DNA from: Verrucomicrobiota bacterium
GTDB taxonomy: Bacteria; Verrucomicrobiota; Kiritimatiellia; CAIQIC01; JAGNIJ01
Length of the DNA stretch: 64,000 bases
Direction of reading: 5' to 3'
Assembly (NCBI GenBank): GCA_022710725.1
Contig: JAKLGK010000005.1
Span: 156,347 to 220,346 of the forward strand
Shown here: positions 54,372-63,204 of the stretch, in pieces
Layout: each line of letters starts with the position of its first letter
Numbering within the stretch: the stretch's first letter is position 1
Position numbers and translations under genes: made by a program
The notes under the pieces: model-generated
What the model was told of the DNA's origin: nothing
Seen by the model: only the letters and a program-made list of their open reading frames with translations
Database searches by the model: none

Positions 54372-54464
54372 GGAAGGGTGGCTGAGTGGTTAAAGGCACC
54401 CGACTCGAAATCGGGAGAGCGCCCAAAAAGTGCTCCGTGGGTTCGAATCCCACCCCTTCCGCCA
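54372..54464 (+). tRNA. tRNA-Ser (anticodon CGA)
   Basis: The cloverleaf folds by eye: acceptor GGAAGGG/CCCTTCC, D-arm GCTGAGTGGTTAAAGGC, anticodon loop CT-CGA-AA, a long variable arm, T-arm GTGGGTTCGAATCCCAC, and a 3' CCA encoded. Confidence 0.85.
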
Positions 54465-54972: not shown

Positions 54973-56922
54973 ATGAACACTTCCTTTCCAACCATCGGAA
55001 AAACAGCGGTCGCGCTGCTCCTGTTCTCGGGCGGGGCGCCGGGCGCCGAAATGATGCCGTTTGCTTTCAGCGACCTATCCGTCACGGTCGCCGCCGAAGG
55101 GCGGGATCTCTATCGCCTCACGGTCCGGCCCCGGGGTGAGGACCCGGCGCCCGAACAGGAGGCGCCGGCCGGCGTGCGCGTGGCGGACGGCTGGCTGGAA
55201 TTCCGGCGGCCGGACGCGCCCGGCGCCGCTCCGCTGTGGCGCGGGCGGCTGTCTTCGCTTGAAGCCTATGGCCGCGCCCATGTGCCGGGCTCGAGGCTGG
55301 AGTGGGTGGCGCGGCCGGGCGAGGCGCTCTACGGGCTCGGTCAGCGGTTCGGCGGGCTCGATGTCGCCGGAAAAGTTGTGGACATGTGGATCCGCGACGT
55401 CCCGGGGCAGGGCGAGGCGAGCTACTACTGCGCGCCCGTGCTGTTCAGTAGTTCCGGGTATGCGCTGTTTGCCGCCGACAACCCCGAGGGCGAGTTCTCC
55501 CTCAACCCGCTGGGCGAGGGATGGAACCGGTATTCGCGAGCCGGTCGGGAATGGACGTTCTACCTCGCCTTCGCCCCGACGCTGAAGGAGCTCGTGCTCA
55601 AGCGCGCGTCCATTCAAGGCCCGTTCCGCGGCGTGCCGGACTGGGCGTGGGGGCCGTGGATCAGCCGCAACAGCTACGAGAACCAGGGCGAGGCCGAGGA
55701 GGCCATTCGCGGCATGACGGACCGCGGCCTGCCCGTGGCCGCCATCGTCCTGGAGGCCTGGAAGGGCCGGTACGAAACGGGGGAATTCAACCGCTTCGCG
55801 CATGGCGGCTGGAACGTCGACGAGTACTTCGCGTTCTGCCGCGAGCACGGCATCCGCAACGTGCTCTGGCAGGTTCCCGTCATTCCCCCCTCGCATCCCG
55901 GCCTGAAGGAGTTGGCCGGGTCCGGGTACTTCGTCCGCGCGCCGGACGGTTCGGTCCGTTGGCGCCGCGAGTGGCTGGAGGGCATGGCCAACGTGGATTT
56001 CACGAGGCCGGAAGCGGTGGTCTGGTGGAAGGACCAGATGCGGGACGCCGTGCGGCTCGGCGCGCGAGGGTTCAAGGCGGACGACGGGGAGGACATCAAG
56101 GCCGACGATGTCTTTGCCGACGGCCGGCGCGGCTGGCAGTTGCACAACGAGTACACGACGCTGTACGCGCAGGCCCTCTACAGCCTGTTCGACGAGGAGG
56201 GCGTGGACGGGATGTTGTGGTGCCGCAGCGCCAGCCTGGGCTGCGAACGCGCGCCCGGGCTCTGGGCAGGCGACCAGTACGCCAACTGGGAGCAGTATCG
56301 TTCGTTGCTTCCCGCGGGCTTGAGCGCGGGCTTGAGCGGCGCGCCGTTTTGGAGCCACGACATCGGGGGCTACATCGGCGACCCCTCGCCCGAACTCTAC
56401 ATCCGCTGGCTCCAGTTCGGCGCGTTCAGCCCGTTCATGCAGTACCACGGCATCAAGCCGCGCGAGCCGTGGCTGTTCGGGCACGAAGCGGAGGCCGCGT
56501 ACAGGCTGCTGGCTCATCTCCGGATGAACCTCAAGCCGATGCTGATCGAACTCGGCCGGGAGGCGGCGGCGACCGGCCTGCCGATCATGCGCCCGATGAT
56601 CCTGGAATTCCCCGGCGATTCGCGTTTCCTCACGGAGGATTCCCAGTACATGCTGGGCCCCGACCTGCTCGTCGCGCCGATCTTCCAGGAAGGCGCGACG
56701 AAACGGGTCGTCAAGTTCCCGGCGGGCCGCTGGCGGCGCCTGCTGTCGCCGACGATCCACGAGGGGCCCGCGGACGTCGAGATCGCGTGCGGCCTCATGG
56801 ATGCCCCGGTCTTCGTCCGCGAGGGCGCGCGGCTCAAGGTTCAGCTGGCCCGCGGCGCCGCGCTGGGAACGTGGTCGCCCGACGCGCCGGTCCGGGAGCT
56901 GCGCTACGGGCGCGGCCGATAG
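54973..56922 (+). CDS. Glycoside hydrolase family 31 alpha-glycosidase, secreted
   Basis: The signal peptide is MNTSFPTIGKTAVALLLFSGGAPGAEM. The GH31 motifs are present (GFKADDGE resembling FKTDFGE, and LSGAPFWSHDIGGY). Confidence 0.75.
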   Translation: MNTSFPTIGKTAVALLLFSGGAPGAEMMPFAFSDLSVTVAAEGRDLYRLTVRPRGEDPAPEQEAPAGVRVADGWLEFRRPDAPGAAPLWRGRLSSLEAYGRAHVPGSRLEWVARPGEALYGLGQRFGGLDVAGKVVDMWIRDVPGQGEASYYCAPVLFSSSGYALFAADNPEGEFSLNPLGEGWNRYSRAGREWTFYLAFAPTLKELVLKRASIQGPFRGVPDWAWGPWISRNSYENQGEAEEAIRGMTDRGLPVAAIVLEAWKGRYETGEFNRFAHGGWNVDEYFAFCREHGIRNVLWQVPVIPPSHPGLKELAGSGYFVRAPDGSVRWRREWLEGMANVDFTRPEAVVWWKDQMRDAVRLGARGFKADDGEDIKADDVFADGRRGWQLHNEYTTLYAQALYSLFDEEGVDGMLWCRSASLGCERAPGLWAGDQYANWEQYRSLLPAGLSAGLSGAPFWSHDIGGYIGDPSPELYIRWLQFGAFSPFMQYHGIKPREPWLFGHEAEAAYRLLAHLRMNLKPMLIELGREAAATGLPIMRPMILEFPGDSRFLTEDSQYMLGPDLLVAPIFQEGATKRVVKFPAGRWRRLLSPTIHEGPADVEIACGLMDAPVFVREGARLKVQLARGAALGTWSPDAPVRELRYGRGR

Positions 56923-56934
56923 AGGGGTTTCCAA

Positions 56935-56961
56935 ATGTATCACAGTTTATAAACTGTGATA
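56935..56961. repeat. Palindromic element, copy 1: aTGTATCACAGTTTATAAACTGTGATA
   Basis: A perfect 24-bp palindrome TATCACAGTTTA|TAAACTGTGATA. It overlaps the rsmE stop codon and lies 13 nt after the GH31 stop. A 27-nt stretch is identical in copy 2 at 61633-61662. Confidence 0.7.
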
Positions 56962-57699
56962 TCCTGCTTCCCGGCGCTGTTTCGCATGCGCCAACGCCAG
57001 CAAGGCCAGGCAGGCTGTGTCCGTGCGCAGCGGACGCGTGCCCATGGATACGGGAAGAAAACCGTGGGCGGTCAGCAACTCCTCCTCGTACGGGATCCAT
57101 CCGCCCTCGGGGCCGACGGCGAGCAGCACCCTGCCGGACCGCGCCGCCGGGACTGCGTCCAGGACGGATGATCCCTCGCCGGGCCGCGCGAGCAGGCGCA
57201 AGCCGTCCGGGAATAAGCCGTCTAACTCGTCTTCGATCAGGATCTTGAACTGCTTGAACACGTGGACGTCCGGCAGCCGCGTGTCGCCGGCCTGCTGGAG
57301 TCCCTCGATGAGCGGGGGGCGGTACCCCTCGGGCCGGAGGACGTGCGAGTCGAAGTACATCTTCTCGACCTTCCACGCGTTGGTCAGGATGATCCGGCCG
57401 ACGCCCATCGCCGCCAGTTGCGCCCACAGCCGCCGCATGACTTTCGGCCGGGGCAGGGCGAGCAGCAGGTCCACTCGCGGCGGCGGCGGCGCGGGTTCGT
57501 CGAACCGGCAGTCCAGCTCGACGGCGCCTTTTTCGATCGCGATTACGGCGGCCCGGCCCCGGTTGCCGTTGAGCAGGCCGACGCGAATCTCGTCGCCCAG
57601 CCGCGCCTTGAGGACGGCGGTAATGTGTTCGGCGCGCGCGTCCGAAAGATGGACCCGGTCGCCGCGCAGTTCCGGGGATTCGATGAGGATGAGATTCAT
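56947..57699 (-). CDS. rsmE: 16S rRNA (uracil1498-N3)-methyltransferase RsmE
   Basis: The start MNLILIE was derived inside the longer track ORF. It has the PUA-like N-terminus and the SPOUT motifs (LLLALPRPK, LAVGPEGGW). Confidence 0.8.
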   Translation of the reverse strand: MNLILIESPELRGDRVHLSDARAEHITAVLKARLGDEIRVGLLNGNRGRAAVIAIEKGAVELDCRFDEPAPPPPRVDLLLALPRPKVMRRLWAQLAAMGVGRIILTNAWKVEKMYFDSHVLRPEGYRPPLIEGLQQAGDTRLPDVHVFKQFKILIEDELDGLFPDGLRLLARPGEGSSVLDAVPAARSGRVLLAVGPEGGWIPYEEELLTAHGFLPVSMGTRPLRTDTACLALLALAHAKQRREAGYHSL

Positions 57700-58544
57700 G
57701 TCGGCCGGGACGGCAGGTCTTCGTTCAGGCTTCCGGTCCGGTAACCCTGCAGGTCGAGCGCCACGAAGCGGAATCCCGCGGCCTTTACGCGCCGCGCGAT
57801 CTCCGAGCGCAAGGGCTCGCGGGCCGCGCGCTCGATGTCGCCGGGCGCCAGCTCGATCCGCGCAAACTTCCCGTGCGCGCGCACGCGCACCACGTTGAAC
57901 CCGAGTTCGTGAAGCGCGCCCTCCGCCCGCTCTACGGTGGATAGTATCTCCCTGGTGATAGCTGTTCCGTACGGGACCCGCGAGGCGAGGCATGCCGAGG
58001 CGGGCTTATCCGCCGTCGGCAGGCCCAGCAGGCGCGAGGCCTGCCGGATGTCCGCCTTGCTCCAGCCGGTCTCCAGCAGGGGGCTGCGGACCTTCAGGTT
58101 CCCGGCTGCCGCGCGGCCCGGCCGGTAATCGCCGAGGTCGTCCGTGTTCACCCCGTCCACGACCGCCCTCCTCTCATTTTCCTTCGCCAGGTGGCCGAGC
58201 AGCGTGAACAGCTCGGTCTTGCAGTGGAAGCAGCGGTCCGGGGCGTTTTTCAGGTAGGCCGGGTTGTCCATTTCCCGTGTCGTGATGACGCGGTGGCGGA
58301 TCCCGATCCGCGCGGCCAGTTCGCGCGCCGCCTCGAGTTCCTTCCGCGGCAGCGAAGGGGAGTCCGCCGTCACCGCTTCCGCCTGTTCGCCCAGCACGCC
58401 GTGCGCCGCGGCGGCGAGAAAGGCGCTGTCCGTACCGCCGCTGTACGCGACGACGACAGAGCCCATGTCCCGGAGCGCGCGCTCCAGCTCCGCGGCCTTC
58501 CCGGCAAGTTCCGCAGGCCATGCCATATTTGTCCACGACGTCAT
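57696..58544 (-). CDS. LarE-family PP-loop ATP pyrophosphatase (putative sulfur transferase)
   Basis: It has the PP-loop VVAYSGGTDSA, the conserved PASACLASR Cys motif, and a CFHCK motif. Confidence 0.7.
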   Translation of the reverse strand: MTSWTNMAWPAELAGKAAELERALRDMGSVVVAYSGGTDSAFLAAAAHGVLGEQAEAVTADSPSLPRKELEAARELAARIGIRHRVITTREMDNPAYLKNAPDRCFHCKTELFTLLGHLAKENERRAVVDGVNTDDLGDYRPGRAAAGNLKVRSPLLETGWSKADIRQASRLLGLPTADKPASACLASRVPYGTAITREILSTVERAEGALHELGFNVVRVRAHGKFARIELAPGDIERAAREPLRSEIARRVKAAGFRFVALDLQGYRTGSLNEDLPSRPT

Positions 58545-59614
58545 GGAGTCCTTTCCGCGACGATCCAGCCGCCGCCCAGCACGTCGTCCCCGTCGTAAAA
58601 CACCGCGGCCTGGCCGGGCGTGACGGCGAACTGCGGTTCGGTGAAGTCCACCTGCGCGCCGCCGTCGCCGGTCGGCCGGACCGTCGCCCGCGCGCCCGCG
58701 TGGCGGTAGCGGAGTTGCACGGCGCACTCGATCGGTCCGCGCGGCGCTTCCCGGATCCAGTGGACGTCGGCAAGGCGGCAGCCGGGAGCCAGCGTTTCCC
58801 CGAGCGGGGCGACGACGACCGTGTTCGTGTCGGCGTGGAGTTCCTTGACGTAGAGCCGCTGCGCGGCGGCGACGCCCAGCCCTTCGCGCTGGCCGATGGT
58901 GAAGTGATAATAACCTTCGTGACGGCCCAGGACGCGCCCGGCCGTGTCCACGATCGGGCCGGGCTGATGGAGATTCGGGCGCTGCTTTTCGATGAACTCG
59001 GCGTAGCCATCGGCGTTCACGAAGCAGAGGTCCTGGCTTTCGGAATCGTGGATCACGGGCAGATTCTTTGCGCGCGCGAGGTCGGCGACTTCCGGCTTGG
59101 TCAGGTCGCCGAGCGGGAACAGGACATGCGCCAACTGGCTCTGGTCCAGGCGGTGGAGAAAATAGGACTGGTCCTTCCGCCGGTCGCGCCCGCGGGAGAG
59201 GTGCCATCCATCCTCCCGGCGGGCCAGGCGCGCGTAGTGGCCGGTGGCGAGGTGGGTGCAGCCGAGGGCCAGCGCCTCCCGCAGGAGCAGGCCGAACTTG
59301 ACCACCTCGTTGCAGCGGACGCAGGGGGAGGGCGTGCGGCCCTCGGCGTATTCCTGCACGAAAGGCGCGACGATGCGTTCGCCGAAGAAGCCGAGGGCAT
59401 TCACGAGGTAGTGGGGGATGTCGAGGAACTCCGCGACCTGCCGCGCCCGGCGGGCGTCGTCGAGCGAGCAGCAGCGGGAGCCCTCGCGCCACAGGTGGGC
59501 GGTCAGGCCGATTACTTCGTGACCCTGCTCGGCCAGCAGGGCCGCCGTGACGGAGCTGTCCAGCCCGCCGCTCATGCCGACGGCAACCCGGAGTCTGGAA
59601 GGGGCGGACATCAT
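58541..59614 (-). CDS. mnmA: tRNA-specific 2-thiouridylase MnmA
   Basis: It has the PP-loop VAVGMSGGLDSS, and the catalytic cysteines lie in SPCVRCN and DLCF. Confidence 0.85.
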   Translation of the reverse strand: MMSAPSRLRVAVGMSGGLDSSVTAALLAEQGHEVIGLTAHLWREGSRCCSLDDARRARQVAEFLDIPHYLVNALGFFGERIVAPFVQEYAEGRTPSPCVRCNEVVKFGLLLREALALGCTHLATGHYARLARREDGWHLSRGRDRRKDQSYFLHRLDQSQLAHVLFPLGDLTKPEVADLARAKNLPVIHDSESQDLCFVNADGYAEFIEKQRPNLHQPGPIVDTAGRVLGRHEGYYHFTIGQREGLGVAAAQRLYVKELHADTNTVVVAPLGETLAPGCRLADVHWIREAPRGPIECAVQLRYRHAGARATVRPTGDGGAQVDFTEPQFAVTPGQAAVFYDGDDVLGGGWIVAERTP

Positions 59615-59670
59615 GACATCTGTATCAAGATTGCCCACCGGCGGGGTCTTGGCAAGCTTTCGGCGGCCGT

Positions 59671-60819
59671 TTAGAAGGAGCCGGTTCCCAGCGCCTGCCG
59701 CAGGTCGGCCTCGAGGTCGTCGGCGTGTTCGAGGCCGACGGACAGGCGGACCAGGCCGTCGCCGATCCCGCGCCGACGACGTTCGGCAGGCGGAATGGAA
59801 CTGTGCGTCATCTTCGGGGGATAACACACCAGCGACTCCACGCCGCCGAGGCTTTCCGCGAGGATGAAGAGCTGGAGCCCGGCCGTGAATTTCTCGACGG
59901 CCGGGAAGCCGCCCTTCAGGTCCAGGCTGATCATGCCGCCGAACCCGGACATCTGTTGTTTGGCCAACTCGTGTTGCGGATGCGCCGGGAGCCCGGGGTA
60001 GTACACGCGCTCGACGGCGGGGTGGCCTTGGAGGAAGCGGGCCAGGCGCAGGGCATTCTGCTCGTGGGCCCGCATGCGGAGCGCGAGCGTCTTGAGGCCG
60101 CGCAGCACGAGCCAGCAATCCCACGGGCCGGGCACGGCGCCGGTGGCGTTCTGGTAGGTCTTGAGATCCTGGTGCAACGCATCATCTGAAACGATCACCG
60201 CGCCGCCGATCACGTCGCTGTGGCCGCCGAGGTACTTCGTGGTGCTGTGGACCACGATATCCGCGCCGAGTTCGAGCGGGCGCTGGAAGTAGGGGCTGGC
60301 GAACGTGTTGTCCACGGCGACCCAGGCCTTGCGCGCGCGGGCGATTTCCGCCAGCGCTTGAAGGTCGGCCAGCCGCAGCAGGGGATTCGTCGGGGTTTCC
60401 AGCCAGAGCAGCCGCGTGCGCTCCGTGAAGGCCGCGGCGACCTGCGCCGGGTCCGCCGCATTGGCGTAGGTGGTTTTCACGCCCCAGCGCCCGAAGTATT
60501 TTTCGAGCAGGCGGTACGTCCCCCCGTAAAGATCTTCGCCGGCGACGACGTGGTCGCCGGGCCCGAGCAGGTTCAGCACGGCGGTGGTCGCCGCGACGCC
60601 GGACGCGAAGGCCAGCCCGTGCCTCCCGCTTTCCAGCGAGGCGAGGGCTGCCTCCAGCGCGGCGCGCGTGGGATTGCCCGAGCGCGAGTACTCGAACGCG
60701 CGGGGCCGGCCGATGCCGTCCTGCTGAAAGGTGGAGGTCTGGTAGACGGGGGTCATCACCGCGCCCGTGACGGGGTCGGGCGGCTGGCCGTCGTGAATGG
60801 CGCGGGTCTCAAATCGCAT
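59671..60819 (-). CDS. Cys/Met-metabolism PLP enzyme (cystathionine gamma-synthase / beta-lyase / gamma-lyase family)
   Basis: It has the PLP lysine motif VVHSTTKYLGGHSD and the fold-type I trans-sulfuration architecture. Confidence 0.8.
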   Translation of the reverse strand: MRFETRAIHDGQPPDPVTGAVMTPVYQTSTFQQDGIGRPRAFEYSRSGNPTRAALEAALASLESGRHGLAFASGVAATTAVLNLLGPGDHVVAGEDLYGGTYRLLEKYFGRWGVKTTYANAADPAQVAAAFTERTRLLWLETPTNPLLRLADLQALAEIARARKAWVAVDNTFASPYFQRPLELGADIVVHSTTKYLGGHSDVIGGAVIVSDDALHQDLKTYQNATGAVPGPWDCWLVLRGLKTLALRMRAHEQNALRLARFLQGHPAVERVYYPGLPAHPQHELAKQQMSGFGGMISLDLKGGFPAVEKFTAGLQLFILAESLGGVESLVCYPPKMTHSSIPPAERRRRGIGDGLVRLSVGLEHADDLEADLRQALGTGSF

Positions 60820-61609
60820 AGGAACTGCTCCTGGGTTGATCGGCTTCGGCGCCTCGGGGCGCGGTCCACGAGGAAATCAGGTCGGCCCGGGTCACGACGC
60901 CCGTGGGGCGCCCGTCGCGGGTTGCGACAATGCCGGGCGCGCCGCCGAGCAGGATCCGGTAGGCCTCGGAGATTTCGGCCTTCTCGTCCAGCGAGGGCAG
61001 GGGCCTGGCCATGACCGCGGAGATCTCCTGGTTGGCGAGGTCCAGCCCGTCGTGCAGCAGCTTCATGACCGTGCCCTCGCTCAAGCTGCCGACCACGCGG
61101 GCGTCTTCGATCACAGGGATCTGCGAAATGTTGTACGCCTGCATCAGGTTCACGGCGTGCCGCAGCTTGTCGCGGGGCGACACGCTGATCAGGGCGCGGA
61201 GGTTCAGCTTGGCGCCCAGGACCCGACCGACGGTGACCGACGACCGAGCGCGGTCCTCCCAGAACCCGTTTTCCTGCATCCACCCGTCGTGGTAGATCTT
61301 GGTCATGTAATTCCGGCCCGTGTCCGGCATGACCACGATGAGCCGGTATCCCTTGACCGCCGCGGCCAGCGCGAGGCCCGCCCCGGTGTTGCCCGCGGTG
61401 GCCTCGACGATCGTGCCGCCCGGCGGCAGCAGGCCTTCGCGCTCCGCCGCCTCGATCATGGCGACGGCAATTCGGTCCTTGATGCTGCCGCCGGGATTGA
61501 GGAATTCCGCCTTGATGTAGATGGGCGAGGCGACACCCGCCGCAACCCGGTTCAGCCGGATCAGCGGCGTTCGCCCGATGGCCTGAAGGATGTTGCCGTA
61601 GGAGGCCAT
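60809..61609 (-). pseudogene. Cystathionine beta-synthase / cysteine synthase-like gene with a roughly 200-aa in-frame internal deletion of the PLP core, retaining the tandem CBS domains
   Basis: The first roughly 105 aa match the CysK/CBS N-terminus, including the PLP Lys (NPGGSIKDRIA). The sequence then jumps at IVVMPDTG|RNYMTKIYHDGWMQENGF to the C-terminal MPDTGERYLS-type motif and the CBS pair. The reading frame is intact. Confidence 0.5.
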
Positions 61610-61632
61610 GCCCGTAGTCCTTGCCGAACCCC

Positions 61633-61662
61633 ATGTATCACAGTTTATAAACTGTGATACAT
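61633..61662. repeat. Palindromic element, copy 2: ATGTATCACAGTTTATAAACTGTGATACAT (30-bp perfect palindrome)
   Basis: It lies in the 74-nt gap between the metY stop (61684) and the start of the CBS-like gene (61609), roughly 24 nt upstream of that start codon. Confidence 0.7.
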
Positions 61663-61683
61663 GGCCCCGACGCCGGCCCGACG

Positions 61684-63128
<1,445 letters not shown>

Positions 63129-63204
63129 TGGTGGCGGGGACCGGGATCGAACCGGTGACCTTAGGCTTATGAGTCCTCTGCTCTGCCAACTGAGCTACCC
63201 CGCC
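63129..63204 (-). tRNA. tRNA with a CAT anticodon (Met or Ile2)
   Basis: The reverse complement GGCGGGGTAGCTCAGTTGGCAGAGCAGAGGACTCATAAGCCTAAGGTCACCGGTTCGATCCCGGTCCCCGCCACCA has perfect acceptor, D and T arms. The anticodon loop is CTCATAA and the anticodon stem is imperfect. CCA is encoded. Confidence 0.75.

Follow-up and report, generated by a model that had tools for sequence, protein, structure and literature searches.

Two palindromes at the ends of a sulfur gene block

Why should the same perfect palindrome occur at both ends of a 4.7-kb block of sulfur and tRNA-thiolation genes in a Verrucomicrobiota contig (JAKLGK010000005.1)? The block lies in a 64-kb stretch of this contig, referred to as the window, in which positions are counted from the first letter. 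The genes metY, a cystathionine beta-synthase (CBS)-like gene, a metB-like gene, mnmA, a larE-like gene and rsmE follow one another on the minus strand. One palindrome (copy 2) lies between metY and the CBS-like gene, the other (copy 1) at the end of rsmE. The initial annotation had offered three explanations: operators for a transcription factor of a sulfur/methionine regulon, RNA hairpins acting as attenuators or terminators, and recombination boundaries of a translocated segment. Our analysis suggests that both palindromes are probably binding sites (operators) of a protein with two fused ArsR-type domains; copy 2 would then gate transcription from metY into the downstream genes, and copy 1 would be a second or a silent site.

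The exact 27-nt repeat ATGTATCACAGTTTATAAACTGTGATA was found at two sites in the window, 56935-56961 and 61633-61659, just as it had been described, and none of 100 dinucleotide-preserving shuffles (0/100) contained any match. The 24-mer TATCACAGTTTATAAACTGTGATA is the invariant unit common to both copies. Copy 1 (56935-56961), which like copy 2 has no strand assigned, includes a perfect 24-bp palindrome at 56938-56961. Copy 2 had been described as palindromic over 30 bp; this 30-mer (61633-61662) indeed is, and the perfect palindrome in fact reaches 34 bp (61631-61664), with the ends CCATG...CATGG. The GC content around both palindromes is 65-69%. A third copy was not found in the window, even when 7 mismatches in 24 were allowed or when the generic pattern ATCAC-N12-GTGAT was used.

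Copy 1 is situated at the junction of the convergent rsmE (minus strand) and GH31 glycoside hydrolase (plus strand) genes, 12 nt past the stop of the latter at 56922. As annotated initially, it overlaps the rsmE stop: 56947-56949, read as the reverse complement, gives its TAA, and the final 15 nt of rsmE, with its last five codons (GYHSL*), are inside copy 1. Copy 2 is located within the 74-nt gap between the stop of metY (61684) and the ATG of the CBS-like gene (61609), 22 nt past the former and 23-24 nt before the latter, which agrees with the distance of about 24 nt given before. Both palindromes are identical in all assemblies holding the locus, as far as the contigs reach (one, L033, ends short of copy 1). 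The palindromes are therefore not assembly artefacts.

A dispersed family of intergenic palindromes

We searched species-representative genomes and metagenome contigs with the exact 18-mer core CACAGTTTATAAACTGTG. As a result, 15 further copies were identified in metagenome contigs, all on high-GC (66-72%) contigs, several of which come from samples that also hold the contig of the window. Over 9.3 kb, one copy-bearing locus showed 100% identity to a contig of the metagenome-assembled genome (MAG) GCA_035913195.1 other than the one with the window locus, and so belongs to this MAG. The TAT/ATA flanks, which the search did not require, were present in 15 of the 15 further copies, thereby extending the invariant unit to the 24-mer. 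The outer triplets were CAT-like in most copies, giving the consensus CATG-TATCACAGTTTATAAACTGTGATA-CATG. Contigs of this lineage thus hold 17 identical copies in total. All are strictly intergenic, many are 0-50 nt past a stop codon, and their density on the copy-bearing contigs is about 1 per 100 kb.

Of about 14 loci, 3-4 were at convergent junctions and one (L038) at a divergent junction; the remainder were between co-directional genes. The genes next to the further copies encode GT4, GT2 and GT1 glycosyltransferases, NAD-dependent epimerases, a sugar transferase and a pyruvyl transferase, and also include gatC, an argH-like lyase gene, rtcB, polX and genes for a type II secretion system protein F, a thioesterase and a P-type ATPase. 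Glycan-synthesis genes are touched in 6 of the 13 other loci, and Met/Cys genes in none of them (0/13).

The matches in species-representative genomes, which did not include the source genome, comprised a coherent set in Akkermansia and other Verrucomicrobia. Most of those in low-GC genomes were hairpins flanked by A-runs and T-runs; with no more than 9 positions free to vary in a palindromic 18-mer, we judged these to be terminators matching by chance. No meaningful match was obtained in plasmids, phages or viral contigs, the last giving only a chance hit. Concerning the palindrome sequence itself and REP (repetitive extragenic palindromic) elements in Akkermansia, we found nothing relevant in the searchable literature, which does not span all journals.

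A fused double ArsR/SmtB protein linked to the palindromes

In three unrelated groups, the open reading frame (ORF) adjoining clustered palindromes encodes a protein of about 190-200 residues with two ArsR-type winged-helix domains. Identities among the three proteins are 36% and 30%. When loci retrieved by the DNA 18-mer alone were examined with tblastn, the gene for this fused ArsR protein was present in 19 loci from at least four lineages, at 30-36% identity. It is not encoded in the 64-kb window. A protein identical to one member, P0001, is encoded on JAMIJE010000065.1 of GCA_035913195.1, the MAG that also carries the window locus. P0001 matches the Pfam families HTH_5/HTH_20/MarR_2 twice and the NCBIfam model NF033788 twice.

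Two perfect copies are found upstream of the P0001 gene, 81 and 3 nt before the ATG, the proximal 24-mer ending one base before it. A TTGACG hexamer lies 16 bp upstream of a TAAACT, and the latter is inside the proximal palindrome. The arrangement predicts a leaderless, autorepressed promoter, both promoter and start site being predictions from the sequence. Three GT4 genes start 25 nt after the gene. Among the nine regulator loci scanned, seven had a copy 3-33 nt before the ATG, the others (L062 and L083) having none upstream. In Verrucomicrobia the copy upstream, 12-13 nt from the ATG, is slightly imperfect, and the stop is followed by 2-4 perfect ones.

The reciprocal test was also made, in which three homologues were fetched by protein alone (L110, L111 and L112; 49-51% identity). 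All have ATCAC-N12-GTGAT palindromes 22-33 nt before the ATG, accompanied either by another one 68-99 bp farther upstream or by copies at other places near the gene. The centres of these palindromes vary, being TTAATTAA or TTATTATAATAA (also given as GGATCACAGTTAATTAACTGTGATCC or CTATCACTTATTATAATAAGTGATAG). The invariant outer ATCAC/GTGAT goes together with a strongly conserved first recognition helix in the protein, RASQELRRLQ in Kiritimatiellia and SQYLR in Verrucomicrobia. Cys14, His117 and His151 are nearly invariant.

An AlphaFold model built with 60 homologues (pLDDT 94, pTM 0.88) displays two complete ArsR/SmtB units, each with alpha1-alpha5 and a wing, in one chain. Each half matches the monomers of CzrA, SmtB, SqrR, HlyU and CadC, with TM-scores of about 0.7 of the target for CzrA, SmtB and SqrR. 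At least 494 homologues were found, all from Kiritimatiellia or Verrucomicrobia wherever the source names the organism; the Akkermansia copies stem from the DNA-retrieved loci. We found no description of tandem ArsR proteins, or of a fused ArsR regulator in bacteria of the Planctomycetes-Verrucomicrobia-Chlamydiae (PVC) group, in the searchable literature, again with not all journals covered.

Eight verrucomicrobial loci, with regulator genes of 78-89% identity, were used to evaluate the conservation of the sites. The palindromes 3' of the gene are invariant and the spacers of about 107 nt are poorly conserved, showing that the palindromes are under purifying selection.

Several features of the regulator loci were noted in addition. 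In Verrucomicrobia, the 2-4 perfect palindromes 3' of the fused-ArsR gene recur with a fixed period of 133-136 bp (L007, 2724-3149), and arrays with this period of about 135 bp are shared by L007, L016, L027, L063, L064, L079, L090 and L093. Their spacers diverge among strains and retain a central motif near GCCTTTATTTGCAGGG. A CRISPR-like nature of the arrays was rejected, as the spacers are homologous between strains and have the central motif in common. L005, with two copies, and L009, with one, are paralogous sites differing by one 135-bp unit. In a gut/rumen lineage, the variant GATGTCCACAGTTTATAAACTGTGGACATC is present on both sides of the fused-ArsR gene (L062, 11055-11751; other loci of the lineage are L041, L053, L066, L074, L076, L077, L089 and L091), with conserved flanks and a TATAAT 16 nt downstream of the upstream copy. 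A different repeated site, consisting of three TTTTCCAC-N4-GTGGAAAA palindromes, is found between the fused-ArsR and isocitrate dehydrogenase genes in L111 (10556-10680) and L112 (10547-10650).

A P-type ATPase gene adjoins a palindrome in the Kiritimatiellia lineage (L060, 566-589), and in a MAG from Verrucomicrobia (L110, 3910-7140) a heavy-metal ATPase gene (HMA domain) immediately precedes the fused-ArsR gene. These neighbours hint at a metal-related role in some lineages. The copies from Sphingomonadaceae (L002 and L010) were set aside, as the fused-ArsR gene is not nearby. There, TCACAGTTTATAAACTGTGA is located at 4096-4117 of L002 and 4248-4269 of L010, about 12 nt before a gene for polyphosphate kinase 2 (ppk2); it may be an unrelated operator that shares this core.

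Candidate role of the window palindromes

Taking these results together, we infer that the fused ArsR protein binds the palindromes and acts as a repressor, and that it may thereby affect the sulfur genes of the window. Most likely it would repress its own leaderless gene through the copy over the -10 region, and it would also occupy some tens of other intergenic sites. From its position, copy 2 could stop or tune transcription that runs on from metY into the genes behind it (CBS-like, metB-like, mnmA, larE-like and rsmE). The far end of the metY-to-rsmE unit would be marked by copy 1, at a convergent junction with no promoter to control; this copy might provide a second anchor, as a loop or roadblock, or might have been left there as the element spread and be without function. 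Of the operator proposal made initially, the assignment to a transcription factor is thus the part best supported, with a candidate regulator gene in the same MAG carrying two copies of its own; the specificity for sulfur or methionine is not supported, given the 15 other copies beside unrelated genes.

The placement of copy 2 could be followed in two relatives of the locus, L107 and L108, whose MetY proteins are 96% and 89% identical to that of the window, respectively. In L108, a palindrome, CCTCACAGTTTATAAACTGCGAGG, is kept at the same position between metY and a full-length CBS gene, with different flanks and with outer triplets altered on both arms relative to copy 2.

A number of observations weigh against the operator reading. 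L107, with the same upstream synteny, has no palindrome between metY and CBS, and L108 lacks the one at the rsmE end, its rsmE and the convergent gene overlapping there. Convergent junctions that lack a promoter (window copy 1, L056 and L057) are unusual places for the sites of a regulon. A -35-like hexamer accompanies only the proximal site of P0001 and is absent in 31 other arm directions, which also ruled out the palindrome as a self-contained bidirectional sigma-70 promoter. In about 190 kb of sequence from this lineage, copies are either perfect or absent and degenerate ones were not found; such an all-or-none pattern resembles copied repeats more closely than a regulon that is evolving. 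Furthermore, the two arms of a site covary: in Kiritimatiellia, site-specific variants common to both arms exceeded those in shuffled arms (p = 0.013), and in Verrucomicrobia, at positions next to the core, none of 5000 shuffles (0/5000) reached the observed value. Since a protein that binds duplex DNA does not require such covariation, a hairpin or some mechanism of copying is hinted at. The sites must be copied, because identical sites of 24-30 bp cannot recur by point mutation. Perfect-or-absent copies, promoter-less sites, covarying arms and copying together give the family a REP-like character.

Alternative explanations

This character raises the alternative that the palindromes are selfish or structural hairpin repeats of the REP type, which spread through intergenic regions, chiefly after stop codons, and have no role for the sulfur genes, the ArsR protein binding or taming them secondarily. 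Beyond the perfect copies at about 1 per 100 kb and their positions past stops and at convergent junctions, such an origin would account for the differing presence of sites between close relatives, for the covarying arms and for the paralogous sites of L005 and L009, one 135-bp unit apart. Copy 1 also resembles an insertion that replaced the C-terminus of rsmE, as the protein encoded in the window departs from its orthologue exactly where the palindrome starts. Nevertheless, the core has been kept in different phyla as well as at an orthologous position, and this speaks for selection and not for a recent expansion. No REP-associated tyrosine transposase (RAYT/Y1) was seen in any locus examined, the flanked gene encoding a winged-helix protein instead; plasmid copies were not found, and viral contigs gave their chance hit alone. 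The regulator's own operators, moreover, are imperfect in a lineage-conserved manner, their mismatch (A·C or A·A) being one that would make a hairpin less stable. In a test for doublets, pairs were 78, 88 or 133-136 bp apart, and their spacers were unrelated and not self-complementary, so that no long hairpin of the REPIN type (paired REP sequences) is formed. We consider the REP-type explanation unlikely, although it is the main rival. The two accounts can also be combined in a "mobile operator", a REP-like element that copies itself in a hairpin-dependent manner and to which a dedicated fused ArsR protein binds. Element and protein together would make up an architectural or silencing system found throughout the PVC group, bracketing transcription units and building the phased 135-bp arrays. 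The bracketed units could be the regulator's own gene and, in the window, the 4.7-kb sulfur block. The partnership of repeat and protein would be analogous to that of REP and RAYT, without the transposase. We regard this idea as speculative and give it a low probability.

The palindromes could instead function as RNA, as attenuators, terminators or 5'/3' stabilisers in the metY-to-rsmE transcript and at other gene ends. Copy 2 is predicted to fold at -29.8 kcal/mol (z -7.7) and copy 1 at -15.7 to -16.7 kcal/mol, the majority of copies are shortly past stop codons, and the outer stem positions covary. However, the G+C-rich stem and U-tract of a terminator were not found: the stem is AT-rich, the flanks are GGGGTT, TCCTGC and TTTGGA, neither window copy is followed by a U-tract on either strand, and a terminator scan called neither. 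The attenuator or terminator function proposed initially therefore lacks its defining U-tract. In addition, no Rfam family matched, the L038 copy is in a divergent promoter region with no upstream gene, and structure alone would not hold an identical sequence of 18-24 nt across phyla. An RNA function of this kind appears improbable. For operators of a dedicated methionine/cysteine regulator, one can point to the sulfur and tRNA-thiolation genes flanked by both window copies, and to the structural similarity of the fused protein to SqrR and BigR, ArsR-family proteins that sense persulfide or sulfite. Against this, the 13 other loci have no Met/Cys genes and six have glycan-synthesis genes, the metY promoter has no site, its half-sites are not conserved, and the close relative L107 keeps the operon without a site. 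A scattering of the motif irrespective of gene function had been named in advance as what would speak against a sulfur regulon, and this is what the 15 further copies display. The distribution beside unrelated genes rules out an operator specific for methionine and cysteine, and a sulfur-dedicated regulator is accordingly very improbable. As for recombination or transposition boundaries of a translocated 4.7-kb segment, identical repeats do bracket the block, and in several lineages copies also lie on both sides of the regulator gene. Yet the gene order runs through both ends in L108, which lacks one palindrome, and in L107, which lacks both, and no integrase or transposase is present in or adjoining the block. 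As the gene order is the same with or without the palindromes, the repeats do not delimit a translocated segment; the proposal is contradicted by the relatives, and we consider the chance of it being correct close to negligible.

Gene organization and other features of the locus

Gene coordinates follow the calls made for this locus in six public assemblies, and identities follow Pfam. On the minus strand are metY, encoding O-acetylhomoserine sulfhydrylase (61684..62979; Pfam Cys_Met_Meta_PP and source-given names), upstream of copy 2; the CBS-like gene (60809..61609; 266 residues, PALP and CBS domains), the first gene downstream of it; a metB-like gene for a pyridoxal phosphate (PLP) enzyme of the Cys/Met type resembling cystathionine gamma-lyase (59671..60819); mnmA for tRNA 2-thiouridylase (58541..59575); a gene for a larE-like PP-loop ATPase (57696..58526); and rsmE for a 16S rRNA methyltransferase (56947..57699). 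The GH31 gene, convergent with rsmE, is on the plus strand (54973..56922). Pfam bore out the gene identities of the initial annotation for the whole series from metY to rsmE. The CBS-like gene had been described as deleted, and it has indeed suffered an in-frame internal loss of about 198 residues relative to the 464-residue orthologues in L107 and L108. The missing residues, 97-294, lie between the near-identical IVVMPD and IVVVTPD; most of the PLP domain is gone and the two CBS domains are kept. The shortened ORF is intact in every assembly holding it.

An identical MetY is encoded on JAMIJE010000268.1 of GCA_035913195.1 and in several digester assemblies from JGI/ENA, and close MetY homologues are named Kiritimatiellia, Verrucomicrobia or Lentisphaerae. 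A protein identical to one of this MAG is assigned by NCBI to a Kiritimatiellia bacterium, and the organism is therefore a member of the PVC group. The order in L107 and L108 is peptidase M28, metY, CBS, metB, mnmA, larE (and rsmE), with or without palindromes.

Half-sites resembling the palindrome had been reported in the metY promoter region. They are present at 62992-63000 and 63022-63030 and are not conserved in the relatives. In the metY leader (62980-63060, minus strand), a block, ATGTCTATAGATTAAATAGAG, is conserved in L107 and L108 beside a promoter-like site, TTTACA-16-TATTGT (63027..63054, minus strand), which is outside the palindrome family. The block and this site may be the real regulatory element of metY. 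No S-adenosylmethionine (SAM) riboswitch was detected in the leader. An Rfam scan of the window returned two tRNAs only, and no family matching the palindromes. Two tRNA genes flank the region, at 63132-63204 (minus strand), about 150 nt upstream of the metY start, and at 54372-54461 (plus strand). Elsewhere in the window, an 8-bp tandem repeat, AAGGTGGG / AAAGTGTG, with about 10 units (1710-1816) has an inverted partner about 430 nt downstream (2201-2248).

Comparison with known systems

The fused ArsR proteins constitute an uncharacterised, widespread family tied to a precise DNA site, and with the palindromes provide a testable candidate regulator-operator pair in PVC bacteria, a group that has been studied little. 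That the sulfur genes of the window are bracketed is no evidence for a sulfur regulon or a translocated island. Known regulatory elements of Met/Cys regulons (MetJ, SahR, CymR, McbR and the SAM riboswitch) do not provide a counterpart, as the copies flank unrelated genes and have no Rfam match. Intrinsic bidirectional terminators are similar in placing a hairpin between convergent genes or just past stops, but differ in that the stem here is AT-rich, no U-tract follows, and sequence rather than structure is conserved.

Resemblance to REP, BIME (bacterial interspersed mosaic element) and REPIN sequences is found in the short extragenic palindromes, often just 3' of genes and single or paired. 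The verrucomicrobial pairs with their conserved central spacer motif recall BIME-1 and its central IHF site. As in REP-RAYT systems, one protein gene per genome is flanked by copies; this gene, however, encodes a winged-helix protein with no HUH/Y1 nuclease domain. The palindromes also differ from REP sequences in being perfect and AT-rich, with tens of copies rather than hundreds, and from REPINs in that paired copies have spacers without self-complementarity.

The classical targets of ArsR/SmtB dimers are 12-2-12 inverted repeats. Each half of the fused protein has the same winged-helix fold as the repressors of this family (SmtB, CzrA, CadC and ArsR; SqrR, BigR and HlyU), and a family protein and inverted repeats of 24-34 bp occur in the same genome. 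The palindromes are like ArsR/SmtB operators in length (24-30 bp) and in their AT-rich centre, and, as with autoregulated ArsR-type repressors, a copy would overlap the predicted core promoter of the regulator's own gene. What differs is the protein, with two domains fused in a chain of about 190 residues instead of a homodimer, and the site, a perfect palindrome in many identical copies that include promoter-less convergent junctions and phased arrays. Such a near-perfect, multi-copy and promoter-independent distribution, together with the arrays of fixed period, is unusual for a bacterial transcription factor, and the palindrome family thus blurs the boundary between a regulon and a REP-like repeat.

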